From contig JBPOID010000001.1 in NCBI GenBank assembly GCA_052034805.1, forward strand, positions 28,184-92,183: a stretch of 64,000 nt of DNA, read 5' to 3'. The notes under the pieces are model-generated. The model was not told where the DNA came from. It worked only from the letters and a program-made list of their open reading frames with translations, and ran no database searches. Shown here piece by piece: positions 22,555 to 45,418 of this stretch. The stretch comes from Candidatus Tayloriibacteriota bacterium (GTDB taxonomy: Bacteria > Patescibacteriota > Minisyncoccia > Phycocordibacterales > PALSA-1337). The translations under genes and the position numbers were made by a program. How positions within the stretch are numbered: the first letter of the stretch is position 1; every line of letters begins with the position of its first letter.

Positions 22555-23760
22555 TTAATAATTTCTTAATCTATTTATATTCTCATGCTGACGAATCTTT
22601 TCATGCGCCTTGGCTTCTATCTGACGTATTCTCTCTCTTGTAACTCCGAATTCCTTTCCTACCTCCTCTAGAGTATGAGTTATACCATCATTTAATCCAT
22701 GTCTCATCTCTAATATTCTTCTTTCTTTTTCGGAAAGATCATTTAATATTCCATTTACTTGATCTCGTAATATTCTACGAGAGCTTTCTTGATCTGGAGA
22801 AAGGATTTTGTCATCAGAAAGGAAATCTCCCAATGTAGACTTTCCATCATCACCATCATCACCTACTGGACTTTCTAGAGAGACAACATCTTGATCTATT
22901 TTTTCTATATTATAGATTTTTTCTACATCTAATCCCATTTCTGTAGCTATTTCTTCTGCCAATGGATCTCGTCCTAAATCTTGAGTAAGTCTTCTAACTA
23001 CTTGTTTGTATTTTGCTATTGTTTCAACCATATGCACTGGAACACGTATAGTTCTACTCTGATCAGCCAAAGCACGAGTTATGGCCTGACGTATCCACCA
23101 TGTAGCATAAGTAGAAAACTTATAACCTTTTGTCCAATCGAATTTATCTACAGCTTTGAAAAGACCTAGATTACCCTCTTGTATAAGATCAAGTAATGTT
23201 AAGTCTGGACTTCTACCTACATATTTTTTTGCTATAGAAACTACGAGACGGAGATTCGCACGAGCAAGCAAATTCTTTGCTTCTATATCACCAGCTTGAA
23301 TTCTTTTTGCTAATTCCTTTTCATTACCAGCAGAAATAAGAGGATATTGACCTATTTCTTTCAAATACATCTGTATAGAATCGAAATTAGAATCACTTTT
23401 CATACCATAAGAATATTTCTTTGGATGAACGATTTCTGGTTCAACTTCCAATAATCCTCCTCCCTCTAGAACATCTATACCGAAAGAAGAAAATCTAGTA
23501 TAAAGATTATCTAGAAATTCAATATCTGTTTCTATATTTGGGAATTCTTTTAGGATCTCATCATAAGTAACGAAACCTCTTTCTTTACCCTTTGCTATAA
23601 GTTTTAGAGCTTTTAGATCTGATTCCTTGCCTTTATTTGGCTTTTTATTATCTTTTTTATTAGATGATTTCTTTATTTTTGTCTTGATCTTGGACTTGGA
23701 TTTTGTTTTATTTGAAATCTTCTTTATTTTATTCTTCTTTGAAACTTTTTTTGAGGACAT
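22555..23760 (-). CDS. rpoD: RNA polymerase sigma-70 factor with a Lys-rich N-terminal tail
   Basis: Regions 2-4 present: [36 protein letters not shown]. Confidence 0.9.
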
Positions 23761-25613: not shown

Positions 25614-28600
25614 TTATTCTATATCGAATTCTTCTTCTGGCTGTATGTCTTCTATCATTTTCTGTTTTGGACTACCTTTAAATCCTGTACCTGCTGGTAT
25701 CAATCTTCCGATTATAGTATTTTCCATTAGACCAACTAGATTATCTTCACTACCACGTATAGCACTGTTTATAAGAACCTTTGTAGTATGTTGGAATGAA
25801 GCGGCTGATAGGAAGCTCTTTCTTGATAGAGATACTTCTGCAATACCCATCACTACTGGCTTTGCTTTTGCCATTTCTCCACCCTTTGCTTTTATCATAG
25901 CATTTTCTTCTTGTATTTGTGCATCATCAACTATTACACCTTCTGTAAGAGTAGTATCACCTGAAGAAATTATTTGTCTTCTTGAGAACATTTGTCTAAC
26001 TATTATTTCTATATGTTTTCTAGAAACAGTTTCTCCCTGAAGTTCATAGATTTTGCTTACTTCACTTATAACATAAGCTTTTGCTCTTTCTGCTCCACCA
26101 TATTCGAAGACTTCATCTATATCAGCAGAACCATCTGTGATAATATCTCCCTTCTTTACTTTATCTCCAACCTTTACTGTAGGTATTCTCTTATAATTGA
26201 ATACATATTCAACTTCAGAAGCTTTCTTGCCTTTTGATCTATCTTCTAATTCTGGTATTACTTTTATTATTTTTTCTTTTATCAAATCCTTTACTTCTGT
26301 AACGACACCATCAACTGTAGCAACTACCGCAGGATTCTTTGGGCTTCTCTTTTCGAAAACTTCTTCAACACGAGGTAGACCCAAAGTAATATCTCCACCA
26401 ACAGATGCAGTACCTCCAGCGTGGAATGTTCTCATTGTTAGCTGTGTTCCAGGTTCACCGATAGCTTGAGCTGCTATAGTACCTATAGCTTCACCCAATT
26501 CTACTATTTTATTCTTTCCTAGATCTATTCCATAACAATTAGCACATACTCCTGTAATACTCTTACATGATAATGGTGAGCGTACCTTCACAGATGATAC
26601 TCCCATTTCTTCTACTTTCTGAGCTTCTTGTTTACTCAATAGATGTCCTTTCTTGAATAGAACATTTCCATTTGTATCCAATACATCTTCTGCGATAACA
26701 CGTCCACGAATATTCTTTGAAATAGGAATATCCATACCTGATGCTGTTATTTTCTTTATTTCTATACTATCTTTTGTTCCACAATCTTCTTCATTCACTA
26801 TAACATCCTGAGCAACAACGAATAGTTTACGAGTAAGATATCCAGCTTTTGCAGTGTTTAGGGCAGTGTCTGTTAGACCTTTTCTTGAACCGTGAGTAGT
26901 AATGAAATATTCTATAGGTGTAAGTCCTTCTTTTGAACAAGATAGAATTGGGAATTCTATAGTACCTGTAGTAGATGAAATAAGTCCTTTCATACCTGCC
27001 ATTTGTGTAATCTGTGATAGAGATCCACGGGCTCCAGATGTAACCATATCGTATACAGATCCCATTTTATTTAGAGAATTAGGGATAAGCTTTTCTACAT
27101 CGTTCTTTGCTTTATGCCAAATCTCAATATTCTTTCTGAATCTTTCATCTTCTGCTAGAAGTCCTTCATTGAATTGATGCATAATAAGATCACTTTTATC
27201 CTTTGCTGATTTTATTATTTCAAATTTACCATTTGGAACAACTATATCATCTATACCCCATGTAGTACCTGAGAATGTTGTATATTTGAATCCGAATGCT
27301 TTTATTTTATCTAGAATAGGTGGTAGAGCTCCTATACCATTTGTGATTATAATATCATCTATAATAGATGCTAATTTCTTTCTATCAATTTCTTTATTTA
27401 TATAAGGATAATCAGTTGGTAATATATCATTGAATAATATTCTACCTACTGTAGTCTCGAATATTTTGCCATCGAATTGTGAATATTTCTTGTTACTATT
27501 TGGTAAAACCTTTATTAAAGTTCTATAACCAATAGCACCGAAATTATGAGCTGATAGAGCTGCTTCAGGACTTTCGAATATCATACCTTCACCCTTTTCA
27601 CCTGATACAGTCTTTGTAATCCAGAAACATCCAAGAACTATTTCTAGTAGCTTTGATATAACTGTAGGATCTCCATTTCCTGGTTTTAGTATATTTTTAT
27701 CAGAAGCCATTATTTCTTTTGCTTCTAATTGAGCTTCTTCACCCAATGGAACGTGAACGGCCATCTGGTCTCCATCGAAGTCAGCATTGAAAGCTGTACA
27801 TACTAGTGGGTGAACTTGAATAGCATTTCCTTCTATTAGAACTGGACGAAATGCTTGTATACCTAGACGGTGTAGAGTAGGAGCACGGTTTAGAAGAACA
27901 TATTTTCCTGCTATAACTTCTTCTAATATTTCCCAAACTTCTTTTGCTCCATCATCTATAAGTCTTCCAGCTCCACGAATATTATAAGCAAGTTCTCTCT
28001 TTAATAGACCAGAGATAACGAAAGGACGGAATAATTCCAATGCCATATGCTTTGGCAAACCACATTGATCTAGAGATAATTCTGGTCCAACAACTATCAC
28101 AGAACGTCCAGAATAATCCACACGCTTACCCAAAAGGTTAAGACGAAATAGACCACGCTTACTCTTTAGATTATCTGATAGAGATTTCAAAGCTCTTTTT
28201 TGACTTTGTATAGCGGCTGCACCTGTTGTATTTCCATGACGAATAGAATTATCTATAAGAGCGTCTACAGCTTCTTGTAGAATTCTTTTTTCATTTCTTA
28301 GAATAACATCTGGAGCATTTATCTCGCGAAGTTTCAATAAACGATTATTTCTATTTATTACTCTTCTATACAAATCATTTATATCTGAAGTAGCATATCT
28401 TCCTCCATCTAGTGGAACCATAGGACGAAGTGCTGGTGGAATAACTGGAATACGAGTAAGGAACATCCATTCAGGACGGATTCCAGATTTTATCATTGAT
28501 TTTATCAAGAAAAGTCTCTTTGAAAGTTTTTCTTTATCTATTGAACTAGCATTTTCTAATTCTTTCTCTATTTCTTCTCTGAGCTTATTCATATCTGTCT

Positions 28601-29288
28601 TCTTCAAGATTTCAAATATTGCTTCAGCACCTATTCCAGCTTCGAACAGAGAACCATATTTCATAGAATATTTATGGAATTGAACTTCATCCATAACAAA
28701 TCCTGGTGTAATACTATCTATTTCTTTTTTAGCATTATTCAATAATTCTTTAAGAGCTTCTTTTGTCTTGTCGTCTTGAGCTGCTTTTACTTTTGATTTG
28801 AATTCAGAATCCAATTCTTTTGAGAATTTTTGTTTCTCTTCATCGAATACTTTTGTAACAATATATCCAGCGAAATATACAACTTTCTCTAGATCAGAAG
28901 TAGACATACCCATAATAAGACCTATTCTTGAAGGCATATTACGTAGGAACCATATATGAGATACAGGTGTAGCAAGCTCTATATGACCCATTCTCTCACG
29001 GCGTACTATAGAACGAGTTATTTCAACTCCACATTTTTCACAAACTATTCCCTTATATCTTATTCCACGATATTTTCCACAATAACATTCATAATCCTTA
29101 TCTGGACCGAAGATTTTCTCATCGAATAAACCGTTTTTCTCTGATCTTTGTGTTCTGTAGTTTATAGTTTCTGGCTTTGTGATTTCACCGAATGACCATT
29201 CTAATATTTTTTCTGGACTCGCTACTCCTAGTTTTACGATATCGAAATCTCGAGGTTCCATATTTTTCTTTGTATTTGTTGTTTGCAT
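25614..29288 (-). CDS. rpoC: DNA-directed RNA polymerase subunit beta'
   Basis: NADFDGDQMAVH catalytic motif, Zn-binding CxxC motifs, length 1224 aa. Confidence 0.95.
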   Translation of the reverse strand: MQTTNTKKNMEPRDFDIVKLGVASPEKILEWSFGEITKPETINYRTQRSEKNGLFDEKIFGPDKDYECYCGKYRGIRYKGIVCEKCGVEITRSIVRRERMGHIELATPVSHIWFLRNMPSRIGLIMGMSTSDLEKVVYFAGYIVTKVFDEEKQKFSKELDSEFKSKVKAAQDDKTKEALKELLNNAKKEIDSITPGFVMDEVQFHKYSMKYGSLFEAGIGAEAIFEILKKTDMNKLREEIEKELENASSIDKEKLSKRLFLIKSMIKSGIRPEWMFLTRIPVIPPALRPMVPLDGGRYATSDINDLYRRVINRNNRLLKLREINAPDVILRNEKRILQEAVDALIDNSIRHGNTTGAAAIQSQKRALKSLSDNLKSKRGLFRLNLLGKRVDYSGRSVIVVGPELSLDQCGLPKHMALELFRPFVISGLLKRELAYNIRGAGRLIDDGAKEVWEILEEVIAGKYVLLNRAPTLHRLGIQAFRPVLIEGNAIQVHPLVCTAFNADFDGDQMAVHVPLGEEAQLEAKEIMASDKNILKPGNGDPTVISKLLEIVLGCFWITKTVSGEKGEGMIFESPEAALSAHNFGAIGYRTLIKVLPNSNKKYSQFDGKIFETTVGRILFNDILPTDYPYINKEIDRKKLASIIDDIIITNGIGALPPILDKIKAFGFKYTTFSGTTWGIDDIVVPNGKFEIIKSAKDKSDLIMHQFNEGLLAEDERFRKNIEIWHKAKNDVEKLIPNSLNKMGSVYDMVTSGARGSLSQITQMAGMKGLISSTTGTIEFPILSCSKEGLTPIEYFITTHGSRKGLTDTALNTAKAGYLTRKLFVVAQDVIVNEEDCGTKDSIEIKKITASGMDIPISKNIRGRVIAEDVLDTNGNVLFKKGHLLSKQEAQKVEEMGVSSVKVRSPLSCKSITGVCANCYGIDLGKNKIVELGEAIGTIAAQAIGEPGTQLTMRTFHAGGTASVGGDITLGLPRVEEVFEKRSPKNPAVVATVDGVVTEVKDLIKEKIIKVIPELEDRSKGKKASEVEYVFNYKRIPTVKVGDKVKKGDIITDGSADIDEVFEYGGAERAKAYVISEVSKIYELQGETVSRKHIEIIVRQMFSRRQIISSGDTTLTEGVIVDDAQIQEENAMIKAKGGEMAKAKPVVMGIAEVSLSRKSFLSAASFQHTTKVLINSAIRGSEDNLVGLMENTIIGRLIPAGTGFKGSPKQKMIEDIQPEEEFDIE

Positions 29289-29311: not shown

Positions 29312-30811
29312 TTAGTTGGTAATGGTTATCATTCCATCGCTTTGATCTTCAGTGATCAAAGTCCCATATAAATCTGGTGGATTACACCATAGTCTAGATC
29401 CTTCTTTAACCATCTGTGTACAAGTCTTGCCATTATATAGCGGAACTTTTCCATCGTATAAAGAAACTTTTACTTTATATTGACCTGGTACAGTATCAGC
29501 CAGAATATCACCCGTTACATGATACTTAGAGATATTTAATAGATAAGAATAATTTGTAGTTGTAGCAGAAGAATCAATTGAATAAGAATCACCATTACCA
29601 ATAGATATTAAGAATTTATATCCCTCAGGTAATGTTTTATTAGCATTCCACTTAACAAAAGTATTATCGCCAATTTTTACAATCTCTCCTCCATTTGGAG
29701 AAATAATAGTAATAGAAGGTTCTAAATTCAATCCACCAGACATATTTGGATTTGTTCCTCTATATGAAGCTGATTCACATTTTGAATTATACATAACTTG
29801 ACCTTCTGGACATTTAGCAGTCGTGTTTGTTATGGGAATAAATTTAAATGTAGAAAGAATTTGTTTATTTATTTGATCAATTTCTTTTCCATCACTAATA
29901 GCAGGAAAACTAATCAGATAAGTTCTACCATTATAATTAACTACAACTCCATAATTATATTCTCCTGCATATGTTGAGGGTGTTTTCATACTATAACCAT
30001 TTACTCCTCCTTGAAATTTTACTATGGTTGAATATTCTGTTTTATTAATGTATTTTGATGTATTACAATCTCCATTATCTATTCTACATAAATTAATTGT
30101 GAGATCAGCAGCATCACCTGAAGTTTCTTTTTTACTTAGATAAGCACTATTATTTTCTGGTTTAACCAAAACAATTTGATCACTATATGGATAAGTAATA
30201 TCTGCATTAAGATTTGAATGTATTATCCAATCACTAGGATATTTAAATTCAAAACCAAGTCTTGAATTCGTATATGTCTTCCAATTAGAATTAGTTATAG
30301 AGTCTTTATTATCTCCTGGTGCATAAGAAAACTTAACTGATTTTATTGCAGGAAATTGCAATAATGTTTTCTCTACTATTGGATGAATTTTCGCAATACT
30401 AAATGATACACCAGCCCAACCATCTATATCCATCTTTAGTAATACATAAGCAGTTCCATCTACTACTTTAAGATAAGAGACTTGTTCCTCTGAAGGACTT
30501 ATCTGAGAAAGTATTACCTTTGCTGCAAGTTCTGCACTTGTTCTAACTATATCTGTAGTTGATGTTGAAATAGTCTTTTTTTCAAATTCCCAAGTTGTTA
30601 CAGGATTAACACCTCCATTTGAAACATATTCATTTACAGCTTTTGTATATGAAGGAATGTCCTTTGGAACCATTATTGTTACAGGTACTATATATTGTTC
30701 TCCATGGCAACAATTCAAAGATCGTATTGGTAATAAGAAATTATAGACAGCTCCTGCTACCCCTATCACCACAACCGCTATAATAACCCCCCAAATAATT
30801 TTTTTATTCAT
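29312..30811 (-). CDS. Membrane-anchored secreted protein with a GerMN-like domain, sitting between rpoB and rpoC
   Basis: N-terminal TM/signal, YLKVVDGTAYVLLKMDIDGWAGVSFSIAKIHPIVEKTLLQFPAIKSVKF (GerMN-like), Cys-containing beta-rich C-terminal half. Confidence 0.5.
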   Translation of the reverse strand: MNKKIIWGVIIAVVVIGVAGAVYNFLLPIRSLNCCHGEQYIVPVTIMVPKDIPSYTKAVNEYVSNGGVNPVTTWEFEKKTISTSTTDIVRTSAELAAKVILSQISPSEEQVSYLKVVDGTAYVLLKMDIDGWAGVSFSIAKIHPIVEKTLLQFPAIKSVKFSYAPGDNKDSITNSNWKTYTNSRLGFEFKYPSDWIIHSNLNADITYPYSDQIVLVKPENNSAYLSKKETSGDAADLTINLCRIDNGDCNTSKYINKTEYSTIVKFQGGVNGYSMKTPSTYAGEYNYGVVVNYNGRTYLISFPAISDGKEIDQINKQILSTFKFIPITNTTAKCPEGQVMYNSKCESASYRGTNPNMSGGLNLEPSITIISPNGGEIVKIGDNTFVKWNANKTLPEGYKFLISIGNGDSYSIDSSATTTNYSYLLNISKYHVTGDILADTVPGQYKVKVSLYDGKVPLYNGKTCTQMVKEGSRLWCNPPDLYGTLITEDQSDGMITITN

Positions 30812-30831: not shown

Positions 30832-33800
30832 TTAATCCTCTATATCGATATCATTATCTTTTTTTATCAATTCGACATCCAATGAAAGTCCACGAAGTGA
30901 TTTTAGAAGCACATTAAATGATGCAGGAAGATTTGGTTGCTTCAATCTCTCACCCTTCACTATAGAATCGAATGCCTGAGAACGACCTTGTATATCATCA
31001 GACTTGATAGTTAGAATTTCACGCAATGTATATGCTGCTCCATGACCAAGCAATGCCCAGACTTCCATTTCTCCGAATCTCTGTCCTCCTCCTTGTGCCT
31101 TTCCTCCAAGTGGCTGTTGAGTAATAAGAGAATAAGGTCCGATAGAACGCATATGTATTTTGTCTTCCACCATATGATGAAGTTTCAATATATACATATA
31201 TCCTACAGCTACTGGTTGATCGAAATATTCTCCAGTTCTACCATCACGAAGTTTCATCTTTCCACTCTGATCAAATCCAGCTTTTACTAATTCTTCTTTT
31301 ATTTCTATATCTGTTGCTCCGGCGAATGCTGGAACTATAGCTTGATAATTCAAAGTATTTGCAGCGAGACCTAAGTGAAGTTCAAGTATCTGTCCAAGAT
31401 TCATACGTGAAGGCACACCGAGTGGTGTAAGTATCACATCCACAGGACGACCGTCTTCCATATATGGCATCTCTTCTTCTGGTAATATCTTTGAAATAAC
31501 TCCTTTATTTCCATGACGTCCAGCTAATTTGTCTCCTACTGATACACTTCTTAATTCTGCTACTTCTATATATATTCTCTTTATGATTCCAGAATCAAGT
31601 TTATCTCCTTTCTCTCTTGAGAAAATCTTTACAGATATAACTCTTCCACGCTTTCCACCTTCCATTCTCTTTGATGTATCTTTCACATCGCGAGCTTTCT
31701 CACCGAATATTGATCTGAGCAATCTCTCTTCAGGTGTTAGCTGTGTCTCACTCTTTGGTGAAATCTTTCCTACTAGAATATCTCCAGCACGAACCTCAGC
31801 TCCAACTCTAACTATTCCATCTTCTGCAAGATTCTTTAATTTTCCTTCACCAACATTAGGAATATCACAAGTTGTGATTTCTGGTCCTAGCTTTGTATCA
31901 CGAACATTCACAACGAATTCTTCTATATGAATAGAAGCGAATTTACTATTTTTAACAACTCTTTCAGAAAGAATAATAGCGTCTTCATAGTTACTACCTG
32001 ACCATGACATAAATGCTACAAGCATATTCTGTCCCAAAGCTATTTCTCCACCATCAGAAGTAGAAGTATCAACAAGAACATCTCCTTTCTTTACCTTATC
32101 ACCTAGATTTACAATAGGACGTTGATGGAATGCTGTGAATCCATTTGTTCTAGAGAAATGAACTAGATTATATTCATGTTTCTTTCCACTCTTCTTTCCT
32201 TCCAATATAACTTTCTTTGAATCTACATATACTATTTCACCATCTTCAGGAGCAAGCATTATACGGCCTGTATTTATAACGGCATTTCTTTCCATACCAG
32301 TAGCAACAAGAGGCGCTTCAGGTATAAGACAAGGAGTTGCTTGCTTTTGCATATTAGATCCCATGAGTGCACGGTTTGCATCATTGTGATTTAGGAATGG
32401 TATAAGTGAAGTAGCAATAGAGAAAGCTTGATTTGTAGATATGTCTATATAATCAACATCTTCTTTCTTTGCTAGACTTGGTTTACCATTTATACGTATT
32501 TCTACTTCATCTGATGTTATATTTCCTGAACTTACATCATAAGGAATAGCAGCATGAGCAATACGATAATTCTCTTCTTCCAAAGCATTAAGATATACAA
32601 CTTCACCTGTTATTTTTCCATTCTTTACCTTTACATAAGGAGTTTCTATCATTCCGAAATCATTTACACGAGCAAATATAGATAGACGCAATACTAGACC
32701 GATGTTTGGACCTTCTGGGGTATGTATTGGACATAGACGACCATAGTGAGATGGGTGTACGTCACGAACTTCGAATCCAGCACGATCTCTTACCAATCCT
32801 CCAGGTCCTAGAGCAGTCAATGTACGTAAATGTTCTACTTCTGCTAGAACATTTTCTTGTAGCATAAACTGTGATAGCTGGTTTGTAGTAAAGAATTCTT
32901 TTATACGAGCTTGAAGAGGTCTAGGGAAAACGAAATTAACAGGCAGAGTAACGTCTGGTTCTATTGTAGACATTTTATCCTGTATATTTCTCTTCATCTG
33001 TGTCATACCAACACGGAATTTCTGTTGTAATAATTCTCCAACATATCTTACACGACGACTTCCTAGATGATCTATATCATCTTCTCTTGATTCTGGAGTA
33101 TTATTTAGAAGTACTATATGTGAGATTATTGTAGCAATATCGTCTAATGATATAGTCTTATTCTCCAAATCCTTTTCATCCATTGATTTATTAAATCTTT
33201 TGTTGAAACGAAAACGTCCCACCTTGGATAGATCATATCTTTCAGGCTTGAATATATCTCCGATGAATTCACGTGCATTGTCAGCTGTAGCTAGATCACC
33301 GTCACGAAGTCTCTTATGTATTTCTACATAAGCTTCATCTACTGTTTTTGCATGATCCTTGGCCAAAGTTAAATCTATAACTTTCTTTGCATCTAAATCA
33401 TTTTTAAATAAATCTACTATTTCTTCATTTGTCTTTGCACCTAATATACGTAGTAATGAAGTTATTGGGAACTTTCTCTTTTTATCTATACGTACATATA
33501 CAGTACCATCTGTATCTGATTCTATTTCCATCCATACACCTCTAGCTGGAATTATCTTTGCTCCAAAGAAATTCTTTCCTTTTAATTCATTCAATGTAAA
33601 GAAAATACCGAACGAACGAGCAAGTTGTGGCACTATCACGCGCTCTATACCATTTATTATAAATGTTCCATGATCTGTCATGAGAGGAAGATCAGCAAGA
33701 AACATCTCTTGTTCCTTTAGAGAGTCTTGTATTTTGTTCTTTAGTTTTACTTTGGCTTTTATTTGCCCTTCGTATGTAAGTTTATTCAACTTTGCATAAT

Positions 33801-34014
33801 GCTCATCGTATTTTGGTTTAGATATTTCAAATCCAGAGAATGATAGTTCGAATTTCTTGCCAGCATAATCCTTTATTGTAGAAAATTCTTTTAACACTTC
33901 TCCTATACCAGTCTCTATAAGCCAATTGAAAGAAGCGCATTGTGATTCTACTAGATCCGGAACTGGCACTATAGAGTCTTTGTATCTCTTAAAATACTTT
34001 TTTGTGGTTTGCAT
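30832..34014 (-). CDS. rpoB: DNA-directed RNA polymerase subunit beta. Start taken at ATG (MQTTKKYF) rather than the upstream TTG in the track.
   Basis: Collinear with RpoB: PLMTDHGTFIINGIERVIV ... GEMEVWAL. Confidence 0.95.
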   Translation of the reverse strand: MQTTKKYFKRYKDSIVPVPDLVESQCASFNWLIETGIGEVLKEFSTIKDYAGKKFELSFSGFEISKPKYDEHYAKLNKLTYEGQIKAKVKLKNKIQDSLKEQEMFLADLPLMTDHGTFIINGIERVIVPQLARSFGIFFTLNELKGKNFFGAKIIPARGVWMEIESDTDGTVYVRIDKKRKFPITSLLRILGAKTNEEIVDLFKNDLDAKKVIDLTLAKDHAKTVDEAYVEIHKRLRDGDLATADNAREFIGDIFKPERYDLSKVGRFRFNKRFNKSMDEKDLENKTISLDDIATIISHIVLLNNTPESREDDIDHLGSRRVRYVGELLQQKFRVGMTQMKRNIQDKMSTIEPDVTLPVNFVFPRPLQARIKEFFTTNQLSQFMLQENVLAEVEHLRTLTALGPGGLVRDRAGFEVRDVHPSHYGRLCPIHTPEGPNIGLVLRLSIFARVNDFGMIETPYVKVKNGKITGEVVYLNALEEENYRIAHAAIPYDVSSGNITSDEVEIRINGKPSLAKKEDVDYIDISTNQAFSIATSLIPFLNHNDANRALMGSNMQKQATPCLIPEAPLVATGMERNAVINTGRIMLAPEDGEIVYVDSKKVILEGKKSGKKHEYNLVHFSRTNGFTAFHQRPIVNLGDKVKKGDVLVDTSTSDGGEIALGQNMLVAFMSWSGSNYEDAIILSERVVKNSKFASIHIEEFVVNVRDTKLGPEITTCDIPNVGEGKLKNLAEDGIVRVGAEVRAGDILVGKISPKSETQLTPEERLLRSIFGEKARDVKDTSKRMEGGKRGRVISVKIFSREKGDKLDSGIIKRIYIEVAELRSVSVGDKLAGRHGNKGVISKILPEEEMPYMEDGRPVDVILTPLGVPSRMNLGQILELHLGLAANTLNYQAIVPAFAGATDIEIKEELVKAGFDQSGKMKLRDGRTGEYFDQPVAVGYMYILKLHHMVEDKIHMRSIGPYSLITQQPLGGKAQGGGQRFGEMEVWALLGHGAAYTLREILTIKSDDIQGRSQAFDSIVKGERLKQPNLPASFNVLLKSLRGLSLDVELIKKDNDIDIED

Positions 34015-34287
34015 ATGTTTTTTATAAAAATAATTATACTTTACAAACAAATACCCAGATACACAAAATTACGCATGTCAATAGCGTAATTTAGTTAAAA
34101 ATTTATTGGGATAGTGTTTGCAAGAGAATAATAAGGGGTAGGACCAATTTAAAGCCTTGTAATCCTTCACTTTTTCGATCATAACACAATCTTGCGAAGT
34201 TCTGTCTAGACTATCAGATTGGTAGAGATTGTCAATAGGTTTATCAACAAAAAATGAATAAATAAAATATTTTATAGAATAAATATC

Positions 34288-38255: not shown

Positions 38256-40193
38256 GTGAAAAACAATAAAAGAAACGATAAAATAATAGGTAAAATAAGG
38301 ACTATAAGAAAAGGCCTCGGATTCGTAGAAGATCCAAATGATGAGGAAAACGATATAGTAATAAAAGAAGACAAACTCAATTTCGCATTAAACAATGACA
38401 TTGTTGAAGTCATTTTCCATGGAAAAGGTGAAGACAAAAATGGTGAAGTTATAAAAATAATAGAAAGATCCAGAGAAATCTTCGTAGGTACAGTAGAAAT
38501 ACGCGATGGCAAAACAGGAGTAATACCTGATGATAAAAAACTTTATATAGACTTCATGTTAAATGATGAAGAAGCAAAAAAAGTAAAAGCTCATGATAAA
38601 GTCCAAATAAAAATAGGAAAATGGATTGATAGCAATAAAAATCCAGAAGGAAATATAATAAAAGTTATAGGTGAAAAAGGAAATAATAATGTAGAAATGG
38701 AATCTATAGTATTAGAAAAAGGATTTGAAATAAATTTCCCAGATGATGTAGAAAAAGAAGCAAATAAAATAGAGAAAAATAAAATAAAAGATATTGAAAA
38801 TGAAATACCTAAAAGAAGAGATTTCAGAAAAACTTTGACTTTCACTATTGATCCATTTGATGCAAAGGATTTCGACGATGCTATATCATACAAAGACCTA
38901 GGTAATGGAGAATACGAAATAGGCGTTCATATAGCCGATGTATCACATTATGTAATAGAAAATAGCGCATTAGATAAAGAAGGCTTCAAACGTGGCTGTT
39001 CTATATATCTAGTAGATCGTACTATACCTATGCTTCCAGAAATACTTTCTAATGATGTATGTAGTCTAAACCCAAATGAAGACAAACTCACCTTCTCTGC
39101 AGTTTTTGTCATGAATGATAAAGCACAAATAAAAGAAAGATGGTTCGGCAAAACAATAATAAACTCTACACATAGATTTACTTATGAAAATGCACAGGAA
39201 TCTCTTAATTCTAAAACAGGCAAATATTATAATGAATTAAAAAAGCTCAATGAAATTGCAAAAGTTCTACAAAAAGAGAAATTCAATAAAGGTGCAATAG
39301 AATTCGAACAAGAAGAAATAAAATTCAAATTGGATCAGAATGGTAAACCCATAGGAGTATATAAAAAAGAAAGATTAGATACACATAAATTAGTAGAAGA
39401 ATATATGTTACTTGCAAACCGCGAAGTGGCGAAACATATCTTTGATTCAATAAAGAAAAAAGGTAAAAAAGATACCGGTTCAATATATAGAATTCATGAT
39501 ATACCAGATCAAGAAAAAATGATGGATTTATCTATTTTCGTAAAAGCTTTAGGATACAATCTAAAAGTAAAAGATGGCAAAGCAACAGCTCATGATATAA
39601 AGAGTTTGTTAAAACAAGTAAAAGGAACCGTGCATGAAGCACTCATATCAACAGCAGTTATTAGATCAATGCAAAAAGCAGTATATTCTACAAAGAATAT
39701 CGGGCATTTCGGTTTGGCATTTGATTATTATACCCATTTCACATCCCCTATTAGACGTTATCCAGATTTACTTATACAAAGAATATTACAAAGACATTTA
39801 CATCATGAACCATTCGGAGATAGAGAAATAGTAGAATTCCAGAAAATAGCAGAGAGATCTACAGAAAGAGAAATAGATGCCGCCGACGCAGAAAGAGCTT
39901 CAAAGAAATTGAAACAAGTAGAATACATGAGCGATAAAATAGGTATGGAATTCCAAGGAACAATATCAGGAGTAACAGAATGGGGCCTATATGTAGAAGA
40001 ATTAGAAACAAAATCAGAAGGAATGATAAAGATAAGAGATTTGGGCGATGATTTCTATAATTTCAATAAAAAAACTTATTCAATAAAAGGAGAAAAAACC
40101 GGAAAGACATTTACCTTAGGTAGTCCAATAAAGTTCAAGGTTATAGGTGCTGATTTGGATAAGAAAGTATTAGATTTCAGTTTGGTGGAGTAA
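38256..40193 (+). CDS. rnr: Ribonuclease R (RNB family)
   Basis: Cold-shock-like N-terminus, RNB core (RRDFRKTLTFTIDPFDAKDFDDA, NIGHFGLA...YTHFTSPIRRYPDL), C-terminal S1. Confidence 0.85.
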   Translation: MKNNKRNDKIIGKIRTIRKGLGFVEDPNDEENDIVIKEDKLNFALNNDIVEVIFHGKGEDKNGEVIKIIERSREIFVGTVEIRDGKTGVIPDDKKLYIDFMLNDEEAKKVKAHDKVQIKIGKWIDSNKNPEGNIIKVIGEKGNNNVEMESIVLEKGFEINFPDDVEKEANKIEKNKIKDIENEIPKRRDFRKTLTFTIDPFDAKDFDDAISYKDLGNGEYEIGVHIADVSHYVIENSALDKEGFKRGCSIYLVDRTIPMLPEILSNDVCSLNPNEDKLTFSAVFVMNDKAQIKERWFGKTIINSTHRFTYENAQESLNSKTGKYYNELKKLNEIAKVLQKEKFNKGAIEFEQEEIKFKLDQNGKPIGVYKKERLDTHKLVEEYMLLANREVAKHIFDSIKKKGKKDTGSIYRIHDIPDQEKMMDLSIFVKALGYNLKVKDGKATAHDIKSLLKQVKGTVHEALISTAVIRSMQKAVYSTKNIGHFGLAFDYYTHFTSPIRRYPDLLIQRILQRHLHHEPFGDREIVEFQKIAERSTEREIDAADAERASKKLKQVEYMSDKIGMEFQGTISGVTEWGLYVEELETKSEGMIKIRDLGDDFYNFNKKTYSIKGEKTGKTFTLGSPIKFKVIGADLDKKVLDFSLVE

Positions 40194-40214
40194 AGCAAAT
40201 TAATACTAACTAGT

Positions 40215-40652
40215 ATGTTTACCTTTAGTCAATATCCTTATAAAAAAATATCCAATATATTAATGAAAGCCAAGAAAAGCCGGGAGCGTAAAGAGATAAT
40301 TCAGGCTCTTATTTCATTTACTGATATTTTATACAAAACTATTTCCAATATTTCATCTTATAAACCATTAATATTATTCACAATTGATCCTAATATGATT
40401 TTTCCAGGAAAACATAGAGAATTATCTACTGAAAAACTCGAAACAGAAATAACATCATCTGGCTATATTGATCAATTATTAGAAATAATTGGTATTTATA
40501 ATCATAGAGAAATATCAGATTCTATATCAGACGCTATATCAGACTTGCATGCAGATATGTCTCGTGGGATTAAAGATATTTCTGAGAAAAAAGAAATATT
40601 AATTAACTCTATTAATAATTTAAAAAAGGTTTTGCAGGATTTAGTATATTAA
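40215..40652 (+). CDS. Hypothetical protein (host-like AT-rich)
   Basis: ORF only. No recognisable domain. Confidence 0.35.
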   Translation: MFTFSQYPYKKISNILMKAKKSRERKEIIQALISFTDILYKTISNISSYKPLILFTIDPNMIFPGKHRELSTEKLETEITSSGYIDQLLEIIGIYNHREISDSISDAISDLHADMSRGIKDISEKKEILINSINNLKKVLQDLVY

Positions 40653-40660
40653 TTTTTAAG

Positions 40661-40677
40661 CTCTATAACACTACCAT
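40661..40677 (+). repeat. Island direct repeat copy R1 (CTCTATAACACTACCAT, followed by CTAAACCCTAAA)
   Basis: Core 17-mer shared with copies at 41331, 41721 and 42146. Confidence 0.75.
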
Positions 40678-40784
40678 CCTCTAAACCCTAAAAAATCAAC
40701 AAATTTAATATCCGCAAGAATCGTCCCCATTTTTTATTTTCAATCTCATCTTATTCATAAGCATATAAAGATGGTTTTATATAA

Positions 40785-40824
40785 CAAGTAAAATTAAACC
40801 GCACTTTGCATAAGCATTGTGCGG
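40785..40824 (-). terminator. Rho-independent terminator downstream of island ORF A
   Basis: Minus-strand hairpin CCGCAC-14-GTGCGG followed by TTTAATTTT. A second hairpin GTGACAG/TGTCAC lies at 40834-40859. Confidence 0.45.
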
Positions 40825-40953
40825 TCTCAAAATGTGACAGTTTGTTCTCGAGATGTCACCCATCTCAACGTACTGCATACGAGGCTCACGCTTTTAAAAA
40901 GGTGACAACAATGGAGCTTCTGAATTGAAGGCGGCTCCATCCTTCATTCGTCA

Positions 40954-41214
40954 CTATCCTGCGATAGCTATGAACGTGCCTTGCTCAATAACATGCTTTG
41001 GGTCCACAAATGGTCCGTACCCCTCGATGTAAAGATGGTAAAAACCAATCGAATCCCGAGAGCAGGCCAAGACAGGGCTTTTGAACCCAAAGAGGAGTAA
41101 CGATATTTCCTCATAGGATGCAACATTCATTTTCTCACGTCTCAATTCCTCCAAGATTTCTCCAAGAGGTTTTGACTTATTGACGTGGACGAAAGTGTGT
41201 TTGCTGAGGCTCAT
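40954..41214 (-). CDS. Island ORF A, 86-aa hypothetical protein (MSLSKHTFVHVNKSKPLGEILEELRRE...)
   Basis: ATG at 41214 with AAAGGA SD 5 nt upstream. The track's longer form starts at a TTG. G+C-rich. Confidence 0.5.
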   Translation of the reverse strand: MSLSKHTFVHVNKSKPLGEILEELRREKMNVASYEEISLLLFGFKSPVLACSRDSIGFYHLYIEGYGPFVDPKHVIEQGTFIAIAG

Positions 41215-41290
41215 AAAGGTCCTTTTTCTGGTGCTCAAAGGCGCACCTGCTTAAAGCCTTGAAATTCAATGATCTAATTACTTATATCAT

Positions 41291-41299
41291 TATATCACA
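41291..41299 (-). promoter_or_regulatory. Extended -10 (TGATATAAT) for island ORF A
   Basis: Minus-strand TGATATAAT (plus-strand sequence ATTATATCA at 41291-41299). About 70-nt leader with a hairpin GGTGC/GCACC. Confidence 0.35.
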
Positions 41300-41330
41300 C
41301 TTACAGTATAATGTACAGTTTAAACCCAAA

Positions 41331-41347
41331 CTCTATAACACCACCAT
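41331..41347 (+). repeat. Island direct repeat copy R2 (CTCTATAACACCACCAT, preceded by TAAACCCAAA)
   Basis: Lies in the divergent A/B promoter region, about 60 nt upstream of the ORF B start codon. Confidence 0.8.
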
Positions 41348-41358
41348 TTCCTCAATCA

Positions 41359-41387
41359 TTGACTAATGACTATTATAATGCTATTCT
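41359..41387 (+). promoter_or_regulatory. Putative promoter of island ORF B (TTGACT-17-TATTCT)
   Basis: TTGACT at 41359-41364. A TATAAT at 41374-41379 is only 9 nt away, too close to pair with it, so TATTCT at 41382-41387 is proposed as the -10. Confidence 0.3.
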
Positions 41388-41407
41388 GATTTCAGAAAGG
41401 AAGTGCT

Positions 41408-41659
41408 ATGGCCACACAAATACCGGAGCAATTTATTTCCAAACTCAGTGAATTCATCTCGAGTCTGGACCATCAGACTCAGGAGATCCTTTTGTACTAT
41501 TACGGCGCAGATCAATCATGGAAAAAGAGAACTCTACAACAAGTCGAAGACAGATTTCATGTGGGAACAAGTATCGTCGGTAAGGTTGTTGCAGAACAAA
41601 TCTCTGAATTTCGACAACTGCATAATTTCGACTATGCCACTTGCATGATCCTCATGTAG
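41408..41659 (+). CDS. Island ORF B, 83-aa sigma-70 region-4 / YlxM-like HTH protein
   Basis: QEILLYYYGADQSWKKRTLQQVEDRFHVGTSIVGKVVAEQISEF aligns with sigma r4.2 [18 protein letters not shown] and the YlxM pattern LYY.DDLSL.EIAEEFDVSRQAV. SD AAAGGAAG. Confidence 0.55.
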   Translation: MATQIPEQFISKLSEFISSLDHQTQEILLYYYGADQSWKKRTLQQVEDRFHVGTSIVGKVVAEQISEFRQLHNFDYATCMILM

Positions 41660-41672
41660 ACTGATCTCTAAG

Positions 41673-41708
41673 CGGCGCTGCTATTAAATTTGCAGTGCCG
41701 TTTTTTGT
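41673..41708 (+). terminator. Rho-independent terminator of ORF B
   Basis: CGGCGCTGC-9-GCAGTGCCG hairpin plus TTTTTT. Confidence 0.6.
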
Positions 41709-41720
41709 TTACAATTTAAA

Positions 41721-41737
41721 CTCTATCTCACCACCAT
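41721..41737 (+). repeat. Island direct repeat copy R3 (CTCTATCTCACCACCAT)
   Basis: Sits between the convergent terminators of ORF B and ORF C. Confidence 0.8.
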
Positions 41738-41744
41738 CTTCTCC

Positions 41745-41775
41745 CAACAGAAAACCCACCTCTCATGCATGGGTT
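41745..41775 (-). terminator. Rho-independent terminator of ORF C
   Basis: Minus-strand AACCCA-11-TGGGTT hairpin followed by TTTTCTGTT. Confidence 0.45.
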
Positions 41776-41796
41776 CTCCGTGCTTGAGATAGTGGG

Positions 41797-42075
41797 TTAG
41801 ATTCGGACAAACAATTTCTGGTAGAGCTCATCAAACTGCCCCACCGGATGTTCTGACAAAAACTGTTCGAAGTAGTTCTGCGCATCTGGATGTAAAACCG
41901 AACTGTCTCTGGTTCCCAAATTACAGTTGATTTTCCCGTTGCTCGCAGCCGTTACCATTGCAACTCGTCGGCTTTGCACAACTGCTTGACGGTTGGTCAA
42001 GATGTCAGCCAGAACCACAAGTGCGACACGCTCAGCTTCTGTCAATGTCTGCCATAACTGTTCAAGTTTTTTCAT
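41797..42075 (-). CDS. Island ORF C, 92-aa hypothetical protein (MKKLEQLWQTLTEAERVALVVLADIL...)
   Basis: ATG with AAAGGA SD 9 nt upstream. Promoter TTGACA-17-TAGACT. No recognised domain. Confidence 0.5.
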   Translation of the reverse strand: MKKLEQLWQTLTEAERVALVVLADILTNRQAVVQSRRVAMVTAASNGKINCNLGTRDSSVLHPDAQNYFEQFLSEHPVGQFDELYQKLFVRI

Positions 42076-42100
42076 TGTGCTAAATCCTTTCTTACTTTAT

Positions 42101-42129
42101 AGTCTAATACATTTTAGTTCTTGTGTCAA
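42101..42129 (-). promoter_or_regulatory. sigma70-type promoter TTGACA-17-TAGACT for ORF C
   Basis: Minus-strand TTGACA (plus 42124-42129) and TAGACT (plus 42101-42106). Confidence 0.45.
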
Positions 42130-42145
42130 GTACATAAACCCTAAA

Positions 42146-42159
42146 CTTTATCTCACCAC
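42146..42159 (+). repeat. Island direct repeat copy R4 (CTTTATCTCACCAC, preceded by AAACCCTAAA)
   Basis: Lies exactly between the divergent -35 boxes of P_C (42124-42129) and P_D (42169-42174). Confidence 0.75.
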
Positions 42160-42168
42160 TTTTTACAC

Positions 42169-42198
42169 TTGACATAAGTTATTAAGTCATGTTATGAT
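42169..42198 (+). promoter_or_regulatory. Near-consensus extended -10 promoter TTGACA-18-TGTTATGAT
   Basis: TTGACA at 42169-42174, TGnTATGAT at 42190-42198. Confidence 0.55.
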
Positions 42199-42204
42199 AC
42201 TTAA

Positions 42205-42392
42205 CAGATTGAGTAGCCGTTGACGATACATACGATTCAACAGATGTCGGATTCAAGATGCAGCCGGAAATACTACAAGTATTATCGGAAGTCAATCATT
42301 GACGACAGGATCGTTGATATTAGGCTAAGGCCGAAAAGTCCAAGAATGGGTACTCTTCTAGCCACAATCAGAAATGATTGTGGCATTTTTTT
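42205..42392 (+). ncRNA. Candidate ~185-nt small RNA (island unit D). The track ORF 42220..42405 is probably not translated.
   Basis: Strong promoter and a strong terminator (9-bp stem GCCACAATC/GATTGTGGC at 42361-42384 plus T7) bracket about 185 nt. There is no SD before the TTG or ATG start, and the ORF reads through the terminator hairpin. Internal hairpin CCGGAAATAC-5-GTATTATCGG. Confidence 0.4.
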
Positions 42393-42431
42393 GTTCGAAC
42401 CTTAAAGTTTATGGTACTACTATACTCTAAC

Positions 42432-42460
42432 TTGACGATATTAGTAATACTTGTTATGAT
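42432..42460 (+). promoter_or_regulatory. Second copy of the extended -10 promoter (TTGACG-17-TGTTATGAT)
   Basis: Near-duplicate of the 42169-42198 promoter (ACTTGAC[A/G]...TGTTATGAT). Confidence 0.5.
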
Positions 42461-42466
42461 TATCCG

Positions 42467-42563
42467 CATGAAGATCTTTAATCAAGTGAATTAATAGAAC
42501 TACAAGGCCACGGCAATCATTTTCAAGCGCTCATTTCTTCGGATTTGAGCGCCTTTATTTTTA
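42467..42563 (+). ncRNA. Candidate ~95-nt small RNA (island unit 2)
   Basis: Promoter at 42432-42460, terminator hairpin GCGCTCA-13-TGAGCGC (42527-42552) plus CTTTATTTTT. Longest ORF 8 aa. Contains GCCACGGCAATCATTTT, similar to one arm of the unit-D terminator. Confidence 0.35.
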
Positions 42564-42640
42564 TAGACTACAATTTAATAAAAAAGAACGCCGTACCCGA
42601 AGGTCGTGCATTCTGTTTGAAAGTTTTGAGGATTAAATCC

Positions 42641-43060
42641 TCATGATATCGCCTCTTCGATTGTTTTTTTCCAGTGAAGAGCGAATTGCTCTTCATCCTG
42701 GGCCTCCCCACTCCGTCCACAGAAAGGGGGATACACATCAATCGCCTTAATCTTATGGTATAGTCCATGGTCCAGACCTCTATACGGAGTGACCACAATG
42801 ACGCCATTCAGGTTTTCTGGAAGTCCCGTGTCTTCACAACATGGACAAGCGGTTAAGACAAAGAGTGTTCTGGGATCACAGGCATTTTTTGATGCCACTT
42901 CTTGTACCACCCTATGAATGATTGGTGTCATCTTTAAGAGACTCTTTGCAAGTTCGTGAGATGCCCATTCAAAAGGACTTGAATATCCAAAGATAATTTT
43001 CATAATATAATTTGGTTGAGTGTGGTTTGAAAGTTCATAATCTGCATGACATGATGTCAT
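42641..43060 (-). CDS. Island ORF E, Cys-rich 120-139-aa protein (start at 43060 or at the internal MKIIFGY at 43003)
   Basis: MKIIFGYSSPFEW ... LTACPCCEDTG ... PPFCGRSGE. No SD at either start. Promoter TTGACA-17-TAATAT. Weak resemblance to Rossmann-like N-terminal motifs (Ndt/DNPH1-like [KT]I[IY]FG, or DsrE-like); not secure. Confidence 0.5.
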   Translation of the reverse strand: MTSCHADYELSNHTQPNYIMKIIFGYSSPFEWASHELAKSLLKMTPIIHRVVQEVASKNACDPRTLFVLTACPCCEDTGLPENLNGVIVVTPYRGLDHGLYHKIKAIDVYPPFCGRSGEAQDEEQFALHWKKTIEEAIS

Positions 43061-43127
43061 ACAAGTCGATTACAATCTTTCTTCCAAACTCAACGTATTT
43101 ACTTTCAAAGAACTCTACTATATAGAT

Positions 43128-43156
43128 ATATTATCATACTATATGATATATGTCAA
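43128..43156 (-). promoter_or_regulatory. sigma70-type promoter TTGACA-17-TAATAT for ORF E
   Basis: Minus-strand TTGACA (plus 43151-43156) and TAATAT (plus 43128-43133). Same architecture as the 35641-35669 promoter. Confidence 0.45.
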
Positions 43157-43192
43157 GTGTATTTGTATAGTGTATAGATAATGTATACCCCC

Positions 43193-45418
43193 CTACTTCG
43201 CCACCTTAACCGCCTCATCAAACTGTATTGATAATAACTTCGAAGCCCCATCAGAACCCATAGTGACTCCATATAGAACGCCCGCACGTGACATTGTTTC
43301 TCTATTATGAGTTATAAGTATTAATTGTGAATATTTTGATAAATTACTTATCATATCTCCATATTTTCTAGAATTAGCTTCATCGAGAGCTGCATCTGTT
43401 TCGTCTAATATGATAAATGGTGGAGGATTAACTTGGGAAATAGCAAAAAGAAGAGCAATGGATGTCAAAGCTCTTTCTCCTCCAGATAACATCATAAGTC
43501 CTTTAACTTTCTTTCTTGGTAGATTTACATTTATTTCTAGACCTTCCCTGCCTTCTTCCTCTTCTTCTATTTCTTCTTCTATATTTGTATCATCATTCAT
43601 TGCCAATACTCCTTCTAGATCTGTATCTGATTTCTTCTTTCTTTTCTTTTCTAGAACTACATTCAAAGATGCGGTACCACCTCCGAACATCAATGAAAAG
43701 AATTCTTGGAATTGTGCATTTATCTTTAATATACCTTCTTTGAATTCTATATTTATTCTGAGATCTAGATCTGCTATTAGATTATTTAGTGATTGTTTTG
43801 AATTTTCTAAATCAGCTAATTCCCTAGACAAGAAAGCGTCTCTTTCTTGTACTTCTCTATATTCTTTCATAATATCTCCGCTATTGCCTATTCCAGAATC
43901 CTCTAATCTTACTTTTATTTTTTCTATATTCTTCTTTCTTTCTGTTTGTCTATCTCTATTTTCACTTTCTATTATTTCTAAATCCTTATAATCAACAGCT
44001 TCTCTACCTACCACTAGATATGCTTCATGTAATTCTCTTTTGAATGATTCCTCATCTATGAGCAATCTTTCTTCTCTGGTCTTTATGCCATTTAATATTC
44101 CACGTAATTCATTTTGTCTTGCTATTATTCTGAATATATTTTTCTCAGCATCTCTATCGCTATCCTTCTCTCTTTCTATTCTATGTCTAAGCTCATTGTA
44201 TTCTATATTTTTATCTTTTTCTTTATTTTCTATCTCTTTTATTTTCAAATCTAATTTGCTTTTCTTATCCTTTAATATAGAAATTTCTCTTTCTAATTCT
44301 GCTGTATTTGTAGATATATCTTTATTTTTATGTAAAGAAATAAAATTAGATAATATTTTCTTTATCTCTAAAATACTTTCTAAAAGATTAACTTTTTCTA
44401 TTACTTGTTCTATATCTCTTAGATATACAGTTTTATTATCATCTTTATTCTGTCTATCTTTTTCTTTTTGTATAATCCTTTCCGAGCCAGATATTTCTCC
44501 TTCTATTTTGCCTAATTCATGGAAAATACTGTCTTTTTCTCTTCTTATTTCATACAAAGTCTTTTCTAAAGAAATTAATTCATCACTTTTTGCATCTCTA
44601 TTCTTTGAACTTTCTAAATTCTTTCTTGCTAAAGATATTTCATTATCTAGAGATGATAATTCTTTTATTATGGGTGATTTCTTTTCATCGATTTCTTTCT
44701 TTTCATTTTCTATATATAGTTCTTCTCTTTTGAAAAATTCTTTATAGATTTTCCTAAGCTCATTTCTTAATTCTTGGGCTTTTTCTACTTTCTCTACTTG
44801 CTTTTGTAGGAATTTCATATGAGGGGCTATTTCCCTTCTTAGAGATTCTACAGATTTCATATTTTCTTCTGTCTTTTCTAATTTTCTTTGACTTTCGGTT
44901 TTCTTGTATTGATAGATTTTCAATCCTAAAGCATCTTCTATCATTTCTCTTCTTTCACGAATATTAGTATTCAATATTCTATCTGCTTCACCCTGAGATA
45001 TAATATGATGTCCAGAAGCTCCTATATGAGCATGTGCCAGTAATTCTATTATATCCTTTAGTCTTGCTCCGCTACCGTTTATAAAATACTCATTTACATT
45101 ATCTCTATGAACTACTCTTTCTATGGTGACTTCATCGAAATCTAGATTGAGCATTCTTTTGCTATTATCAAAAGTAACCTTTACTGAGGCTCGGTTTAAT
45201 TTATTACCATCGCTACCCGCAAAGATTAGATCTTCACCCCTCTTTCCACGCATGCTCTTTATGGATTGTTCTCCAAGTACAAAACGAAATGCTTCAGCGG
45301 CATTACTTTTACCCGAACCATTTGGTCCGACTATGGCAGATATCGGTGAAGTAAAATTCAAAGAAGCCTTTTTTGCAAAAGACTTGAAACCTGTCATCTC
45401 TAGGGATTTGAGATACAT
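43193..45418 (-). CDS. smc: SMC-family ATPase, short (741 aa) and apparently hinge-less
   Basis: N-terminal FKSFA...IVGPNGSGKSNAAEAFRFVLGE, C-terminal LSGGERALTSIALLFAI...ILDETDAALD, long Lys/Glu-rich coiled coil. No Gly-rich hinge motif seen. Confidence 0.8.
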   Translation of the reverse strand: MYLKSLEMTGFKSFAKKASLNFTSPISAIVGPNGSGKSNAAEAFRFVLGEQSIKSMRGKRGEDLIFAGSDGNKLNRASVKVTFDNSKRMLNLDFDEVTIERVVHRDNVNEYFINGSGARLKDIIELLAHAHIGASGHHIISQGEADRILNTNIRERREMIEDALGLKIYQYKKTESQRKLEKTEENMKSVESLRREIAPHMKFLQKQVEKVEKAQELRNELRKIYKEFFKREELYIENEKKEIDEKKSPIIKELSSLDNEISLARKNLESSKNRDAKSDELISLEKTLYEIRREKDSIFHELGKIEGEISGSERIIQKEKDRQNKDDNKTVYLRDIEQVIEKVNLLESILEIKKILSNFISLHKNKDISTNTAELEREISILKDKKSKLDLKIKEIENKEKDKNIEYNELRHRIEREKDSDRDAEKNIFRIIARQNELRGILNGIKTREERLLIDEESFKRELHEAYLVVGREAVDYKDLEIIESENRDRQTERKKNIEKIKVRLEDSGIGNSGDIMKEYREVQERDAFLSRELADLENSKQSLNNLIADLDLRINIEFKEGILKINAQFQEFFSLMFGGGTASLNVVLEKKRKKKSDTDLEGVLAMNDDTNIEEEIEEEEEGREGLEINVNLPRKKVKGLMMLSGGERALTSIALLFAISQVNPPPFIILDETDAALDEANSRKYGDMISNLSKYSQLILITHNRETMSRAGVLYGVTMGSDGASKLLSIQFDEAVKVAK

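Follow-up and report, generated by a model that had tools for sequence, protein, structure and literature searches.

In this study, we showed that the 83-aa product of orf83 is very probably a stand-alone sigma domain 4. It is a strongly diverged copy of domain 4 of a group 1-3 type sigma-70 factor, and its homology to region 4, as judged from sequence comparison, is remote and well supported. Canonical -35-type recognition by orf83 is excluded, because neither orf83 nor its sole orthologue P0002 has kept the residues with which region 4 contacts DNA. The family of these two proteins is very rare and divergent, occurs in Patescibacteria and lies outside every curated model.

The window, i.e. 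the whole 64,000-nt stretch of DNA that was analysed, has ~32% GC and carries housekeeping genes (rpoB, rpoC, dnaG, trmD, RNase R, SMC, RNase III and dnaE) together with the full primary sigma factor SigA of the host (22555-23760). Its SMC protein shares 72-76% identity with the SMC proteins of MAGs that carry the labels Candidatus Taylorbacteria, Paceibacterota or Patescibacteria, which places the host among the candidate-phyla-radiation (CPR) bacteria. The genes rpoB and rpoC are usually adjacent; here, a 499-aa ORF (29312-30811, -) with no Pfam family at E <= 1e-5 was observed between rpoB (30832-34050) and rpoC (25614-29288). The orf83 gene is located in a 2.5-kb island of higher GC and orphan genes, which is inserted at the SMC/RNase R junction of this Paceibacteria-type (Patescibacteria) genome. 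The features of the island are as follows:

40653..43192, unstranded: strain-specific island, 39% GC overall and 42-46% in its ORFs, host about 32%
40954..41238, - strand: ORF A, 94 aa from TTG or 86 aa from the ATG at 41214, family-less
41359..41387, + strand: promoter-like site of orf83, TTGACT-17-TATTCT with TG before the -10 box, a consensus match only (9/12)
41397..41403, + strand: Shine-Dalgarno-like AAGGAAG of orf83, 4 nt to the ATG, read from sequence
41408..41659, + strand: orf83, 83 aa with ATG start, free-standing sigma-70 domain-4 HTH protein, pI 5.45
41670..41706, + strand: intrinsic terminator of orf83, 12-bp stem, 10-nt loop, T6
41797..42075, - strand: orf92, convergent with orf83, family-less, promoter-like site 42129..42101
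42641..43060, - strand: orf139, orphan, promoter-like site 43156..43128

The island is flanked by the 26%-GC orf145 (40215-40652), which follows RNase R (38256-40193, +), and by the convergent SMC gene (43193-45418, -). In relatives, the gap between RNase R and SMC is often ~10-40 nt and in others 0.2-4.4 kb with unrelated content, and no island protein was detected in the SMC-RNase R gaps of 76 relatives by tblastn and HMM scan. Since the gaps of the relatives vary and hold none of the island proteins, the island was regarded as an insertion that is specific to this strain and sits at a variable junction. In Paceibacteria-type genomes, the place where RNase R and SMC converge (window 40193-43193; loci L008-L076) was observed as a variable hotspot, and orf145 (+) is itself family-less, with no tblastn match in the loci of the relatives. 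Nothing was found for the island against phages by blastn, for orf92 against phages, or for orf92 and ORF A against IMG/VR, while the search for relatives of orf139 among 5.8e9 proteins returned only orf139 itself. PADLOC gave a single weak match on the island (ORF A, E 0.053). ORF A, which has a promoter-like site at 41317..41289, was missed by public gene callers.

Two small units were also observed in the island. In the first (window 42169-42395, +), a near-consensus promoter (TTGACA-18-TATGAT with TG, 11/12) is followed by a predicted transcript of ~191 nt, which ends in a strong intrinsic terminator (42361-42384 + T7) and overlaps an uncalled 61-aa TTG ORF. This RNA folds as a single long extended hairpin (-61 kcal/mol, z -5.8) and is a candidate structured small RNA. 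In the second (window 42432-42565, +), TTGACG-17-TATGAT (with TG) is followed by ~100 nt, the last part of which is the hairpin GCGCTCA...TGAGCGC with a T-run, and the unit is otherwise weakly structured (z -1.4). Rfam assigned no family to the small-RNA candidates of the island, giving only a chance-level Spot_42 match (E 0.53). The independent metagenome contigs L003 and L004 end at 42102, just left of copy 4 of the repeat D1, and L001 begins at 40896; strain heterogeneity within the island may be the reason for these assembly breaks.

The ORF at 41408-41659 (+) was present as the initial annotation had described it, and the protein segment quoted there equals residues 25-68 exactly. The divergent arrangement of orf83 and ORF A, with the repeat R2 (41328-41353) in between, was likewise found as claimed. 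The product comprises regions 4.1-4.2 and a C-terminal tail, and is acidic with a net charge of about -3. The terminator of orf83 has an MFE of -25.4 kcal/mol (z -5.7 vs shuffles) and was missed by the first terminator scan because its loop is longer than 8 nt. Judged by its own predicted signals, orf83 is transcribed as a separate unit. It was counted as a real gene because of its orthologue, promoter-like site, SD sequence and terminator, and we hold it to be genuine with high confidence.

The orthologue P0002 (80 aa, 47% identity to orf83, E 1.4e-16) was detected in an exhaustive phmmer search of 1.8e9 representative proteins and comes from short contigs from Hainich groundwater and from MAG GCA_964364075.1. 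It is also stand-alone at its own locus in a housekeeping context, where the gene neighbours (L005/L006) encode a 213-aa protein without assigned function and a CCA-adding enzyme (HD and tRNA_NucTran2_2 domains). P0002 shares the hydrophobic core of orf83 as well as its residues K39, R41, R49, H51, S55 and K59. The most conserved element of the family is not the recognition helix but the loop GADQSWKxRT, which is family-specific and nearly invariant (9/10) between the two proteins. With a pI of 9.0, P0002 is a basic protein, and its recognition helix contains lysines. No further family member was found in 5.8e9 proteins by a k-mer indexed search with the single protein and the two-sequence profile, and no member or other sequence relative of orf83 was found in metagenome contigs, IMG/VR scans or phage records by tblastn. 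In the divergent intergenic region upstream of P0002, a perfect 7-bp inverted repeat, TGTTATA-TT-TATAACA (L005 847-862), was observed; it is a possible operator, is AT-rich and may be due to chance.

The initial annotation had taken orf83 for a stand-alone sigma-70 region-4 type HTH protein with kinship to YlxM/UPF0122. In the profile searches the sigma part of this reading stood, with sub-threshold Sigma70_r4 matches, while the UPF0122 part did not, this model being unmatched. Pfam Sigma70_r4 (PF04545) matched orf83 at E 0.025 (14.5 bits) and P0002 at E 7e-4 (19.5 bits), both below the gathering cut-off of 24.1; for comparison, region 4 of the host SigA scored 54.9 bits. The NCBIfam RpoD/SigA and SigB models matched orf83 near the model C-termini (E 0.015-0.02), TIGR02997 to the last position, and PHROG 36 'transcriptional regulator' matched at E 0.0023. 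All of the single-profile matches of orf83 were sub-threshold and all of them fell on sigma region 4, and GerE (PF00196, LuxR/GerE-type HTH) was unmatched by orf83 and P0002. In the HMMER alignments, TLQQVEDRFHVGTSIVGKVV of orf83 was aligned to a 20-residue stretch of SigA/RpoD and LDHQTQEILLYYYG to region 4.1, in agreement with the initial annotation. A PDB-sequence profile search aligned orf83 residues 13-72, and five of its six matches were SigA/RpoD region 4 (E 0.3-1.5).

The next-best phmmer matches of orf83 in the 1.8e9 proteins were the multi-region-4 proteins P0003-P0007 (E 8e-6 to 6e-4), which themselves match Sigma70_r4 at E 1e-17 to 1e-40. When the orf83+P0002 profile was compared with a profile of 20 tandem region-4 repeats using hhalign, a probability of 96.4% (E 1e-9) was obtained. 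The sub-threshold profiles, phmmer, hhalign and the predicted fold agree with each other, and the claimed resemblance to sigma region 4 was borne out. The product had also been called too short for a sigma factor, correctly: region 2 was undetected in orf83, which cannot be a sigma factor because this region is absent. A recent duplicate of the region 4 of host SigA was considered as well and rejected (16% identity to orf83, BLASTP not significant).

The structure of orf83 was predicted by AlphaFold2 with the two-sequence alignment of orf83 and P0002 (pLDDT 83, pTM 0.69), which was used in place of a single-sequence model that was too poor (pLDDT 57). The model contains five helices (7-18, 22-32, 43-50, 54-72 and 76-80) with a helix-turn-helix in the sigma domain 4 fold, as the initial annotation had anticipated. 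In the Foldseek search of the PDB, the best 50 matches were without exception sigma domain 4 (TMt up to 0.84, rmsd 1.5-1.6 Å), and several sigmaA-r4/beta-flap-tip chimeras were included among them. The S. aureus sigmaA domain 4 (4g6d_A) was superposed with a target-normalised TM of 0.83 and an rmsd of 1.5 Å over 60 columns. Most of the named viral matches were Sigma70_r4 or sigma-factor proteins, and small proteins occurred among them. The protein spans the complete domain 4, with its C-terminus within a few residues of the host SigA end.

We take the -35 contacts of region 4 in sigma70 and Taq sigmaA to be R554, R562, R584, E585, R586, R588 and Q589 (E. coli numbering). In the alignments, all of these positions are replaced in orf83 as well as in P0002. 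The contact stretch TRERIRQ of S. aureus SigA and host SigA is GTSIVGK in orf83 and GESLISK in P0002, and the region 4.1 arginines of sigma are replaced by Q, L and Y in the orf83 family. orf83 may bind a different DNA site, since K39, R41, R49, H51, S55 and K59 are conserved.

A putative DNA-binding regulator is our preferred reading of orf83, although we give it somewhat less than an even chance. The product would then act as a small transcription factor, whose HTH would recognise DNA close to promoters, with a sequence preference other than the -35 hexamer, and the surface formed by K39/R41/R49/H51/S55/K59 would stand in for the lost arginines. It might autoregulate its own promoter and perhaps also the other D1-flanked promoter. 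Against DNA binding speak the replacement of the canonical contact positions in both family members, the acidity of orf83, and the finding that the loop rather than the recognition helix is most conserved. The DNA site considered for this regulator was the repeat D1 with the motif AAACTCTATNNCACCACCAT, which has four copies in the window, every one of them on the + strand and within the island:

40658..40683, + strand: D1 copy 1, on the left border of the higher-GC island, 5 nt behind the stop codon of orf145
41328..41353, + strand: D1 copy 2 (R2), flanked by two divergent -35 boxes, that of ORF A and that of orf83, and ending 5 nt short of the latter
41718..41743, + strand: D1 copy 3, in the space between the orf83 and orf92 terminators, the two genes being convergent, with no adjoining promoter
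42143..42168, + strand: D1 copy 4, flanked by two divergent -35 boxes, that of orf92 and that of the small-RNA unit, and abutting the + strand TTGACA

That D1 specifically is the putative DNA site of orf83 is quite doubtful. The four copies are far above the 0.08 expected, two of them (copies 2 and 4) are each flanked by a pair of divergent -35 boxes, and the position of D1 beside the orf83 -35 box and one other promoter-like site is suggestive. However, copies 1 and 3 are not near any promoter-like site, with copy 1 marking the left edge of the island, and the conserved core of D1 is asymmetric and, at 20 nt, long for a single HTH monomer. As a check, it had been proposed to look for homologues that co-occur with the repeat, and D1 was absent from the three loci carrying P0002. 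In IMG/VR, D1 gave 12 single-copy matches, roughly what chance would give for 17 specified bases, and was never present more than once in a contig. The initial annotation had presented orf83 as the likely regulator of the island; this claim is weakened and not established, and remains a guess because the P0002 locus lacks D1 and any island gene. D1 could equally represent sites for another protein, or module-boundary scars from stepwise insertion. The copies were also observed to split the island into four modules of 670, 390, 425 and about 1050 nt with one gene or unit each, and copy 1 lies precisely where AT-rich host DNA gives way to the island; this pattern could reflect stepwise insertion at a recurring site rather than operators.

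A putative role as a beta-flap or anti-sigma interactor, which the initial annotation had also named, is about as likely as DNA binding. As a complete explanation, namely that orf83 is a putative sigma-domain-4 mimic which works on proteins, not DNA, and modulates -35-dependent initiation, we consider it rather unlikely. Such a protein would either bind to the beta-flap tip helix of RNAP, as a competitor of the host sigma domain 4 or as a T4 gp33-like co-factor, or titrate a factor that normally binds sigma region 4. The whole domain-4 architecture is kept, from the helix at the N-terminus (7-18) to the short one at the C-terminus (76-80), and the protein ends almost where host SigA does; the best structural matches include the beta-flap-tip chimeras; and the DNA-contact arginines are lost in an acidic protein. 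The invariant loop GADQSWKxRT lies at what we take to be an activator-contact position of sigma70, residues 570-580, which are presumably contacted by activators such as PhoB. YlxM, which binds Ffh and scRNA, offers a precedent for a sigma-4-like HTH that acts via protein and RNA contacts (PMC8546722). A mimic confined to proteins is harder to reconcile with the basic P0002 (pI 9.0), whose recognition-helix lysines suit nucleic-acid binding. Moreover, DNA binding is the rule for most characterised single-domain sigma-4/LuxR-like proteins.

In its most specific form, orf83 would be a putative horizontally acquired, DNA-blind sigma-domain-4 mimic that re-tunes -35-dependent transcription, which is distinctly unlikely. 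Its target in the genome-reduced Patescibacteria host would be either the beta-flap tip of RNAP, on which it would dock, or the factors that bind region 4, which it would capture, and it might act jointly with the highly structured 191-nt RNA encoded nearby.

It is very unlikely that orf83 is one half of a split, two-polypeptide sigma factor in which a separate region-2 protein recognizes the -10 box. Split or two-subunit sigma systems are represented by B. subtilis SigO-RsoA and T4 gp55 plus gp33, and with these precedents it agrees that orf83 spans exactly one complete domain 4. However, profile searches gave no Sigma70_r2 signal in orf83, ORF A, orf92, orf139, orf61 or orf145. At the P0002 locus, the 213-aa neighbour had no Sigma70_r2 match at an E limit of 0.1 and the other neighbour is the CCA-adding enzyme. 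The residues for reading the -35 box are also lost in orf83.

Highly improbable is a spurious or decaying ORF, i.e. a functionless leftover 3' fragment of a sigma factor gene. The orphan ORFs that make up the island and the family size of only two members would fit such a remnant. The gene was found in four metagenomic contigs, three with 100% identity to the window and one with a single mismatch in 2916 nt, and because these carriers are essentially identical they give no population signal of selection on orf83. On the other side, an orthologue of the same length (80 aa) stands alone in a different genome and context and keeps the hydrophobic core and the 9/10 invariant loop. The predicted fold of orf83 is confident, orf83 has its own promoter-like site, SD sequence and terminator, and a sigma remnant is absent upstream of it.

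The reading as a YlxM/UPF0122-type SRP accessory protein is close to refuted: it is favoured by the common HTH superfamily and by one repeat of the related P0004 that weakly matches UPF0122 (E 0.004), but PF04297 was unreported for orf83 (E limit 10) and P0002 (E limit 1), although HMMER filters may hide very weak matches, the loop between helix 4.1 and the HTH in orf83 has the long, group-1 sigma length, no YlxM/UPF0122 occurs among the best 50 Foldseek PDB matches, all sigma domain 4, and ffh is not adjacent in either genome. The specific kinship to YlxM claimed in the initial annotation therefore holds at the superfamily level only.

Compared with known systems, orf83 is closest in form to sigma domain 4 itself (PF04545; 4g6d, host SigA). 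Both have the same five-helix arrangement with an HTH, an equal loop length between helix 4.1 and the HTH, and the common hydrophobic pattern L..L....IL..YYG......TL.EV...F.V....V..I. Unlike sigma factors, orf83 is free-standing and lacks regions 1-3; its identity to sigma domain 4 is only about 16-22%, below the Pfam cut-off, all of the -35-reading Arg and Glu/Gln are replaced, and it is acidic and has its own invariant loop. The closest sequence relatives outside the family are the tandem region-4 repeats of P0003-P0007, with the common motif (I/L)xxYYG(L/A)xG. These proteins are 355-1145 aa long with 4 to 10 detected region-4-like repeats per protein, while orf83 is a single domain. An N-terminal Sigma70_r2 Pfam match was found in three of the five (P0003, P0005 and P0006), above the gathering score only in P0006. 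P0003-P0007 have an unusual architecture and were unnamed by any source. Two tandem-repeat paralogues were observed side by side in a Firmicute-like chromosome (L097 7071-9893 and 10001-12868; also L098), where the L097 genes adjoin those for ThrRS, AlaRS and SpoIIIAH.

Free-standing Sigma70_r4-type proteins are already known, including in phages. The small phage 'Sigma70_r4 domain containing protein' matches in BFVD (71-136 aa) are likewise orf83-sized single-domain proteins in mobile elements, but agree with orf83 at the fold level only (E 0.16-0.3, 10-19% identity). A literature search on stand-alone region-4 proteins turned up nothing directly relevant. YlxM/UPF0122 is the SRP accessory protein of Gram-positive bacteria, whose gene lies immediately upstream of ffh. 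It resembles orf83 as a small protein built on a sigma-4-like HTH and differs in that orf83 has no PF04297 match, a longer loop and no ffh neighbourhood. T4 gp33 and the anti-sigma-type binders of region 4 (AsiA, Rsd and WhiB-like proteins) share no sequence or fold relationship with orf83 and serve as a mechanistic analogy only; an orf83 that docked on the beta flap, or on partners of region 4, would use the same interface as they do.

Candidate-phyla-radiation bacteria have very few recognisable transcription regulators. In orf83 we see a small candidate for unusual RNA polymerase control, by non-canonical DNA recognition or by beta-flap competition, and if it were a mimic it would represent a new class of RNAP modulator derived from the sigma factor's own C-terminal domain. 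At present, orf83 stands for an orphan family that is rare, has an ordinary fold and counts two known members, and the gain for its annotation is a sigma region-4-like HTH protein that is neither YlxM nor a sigma factor.
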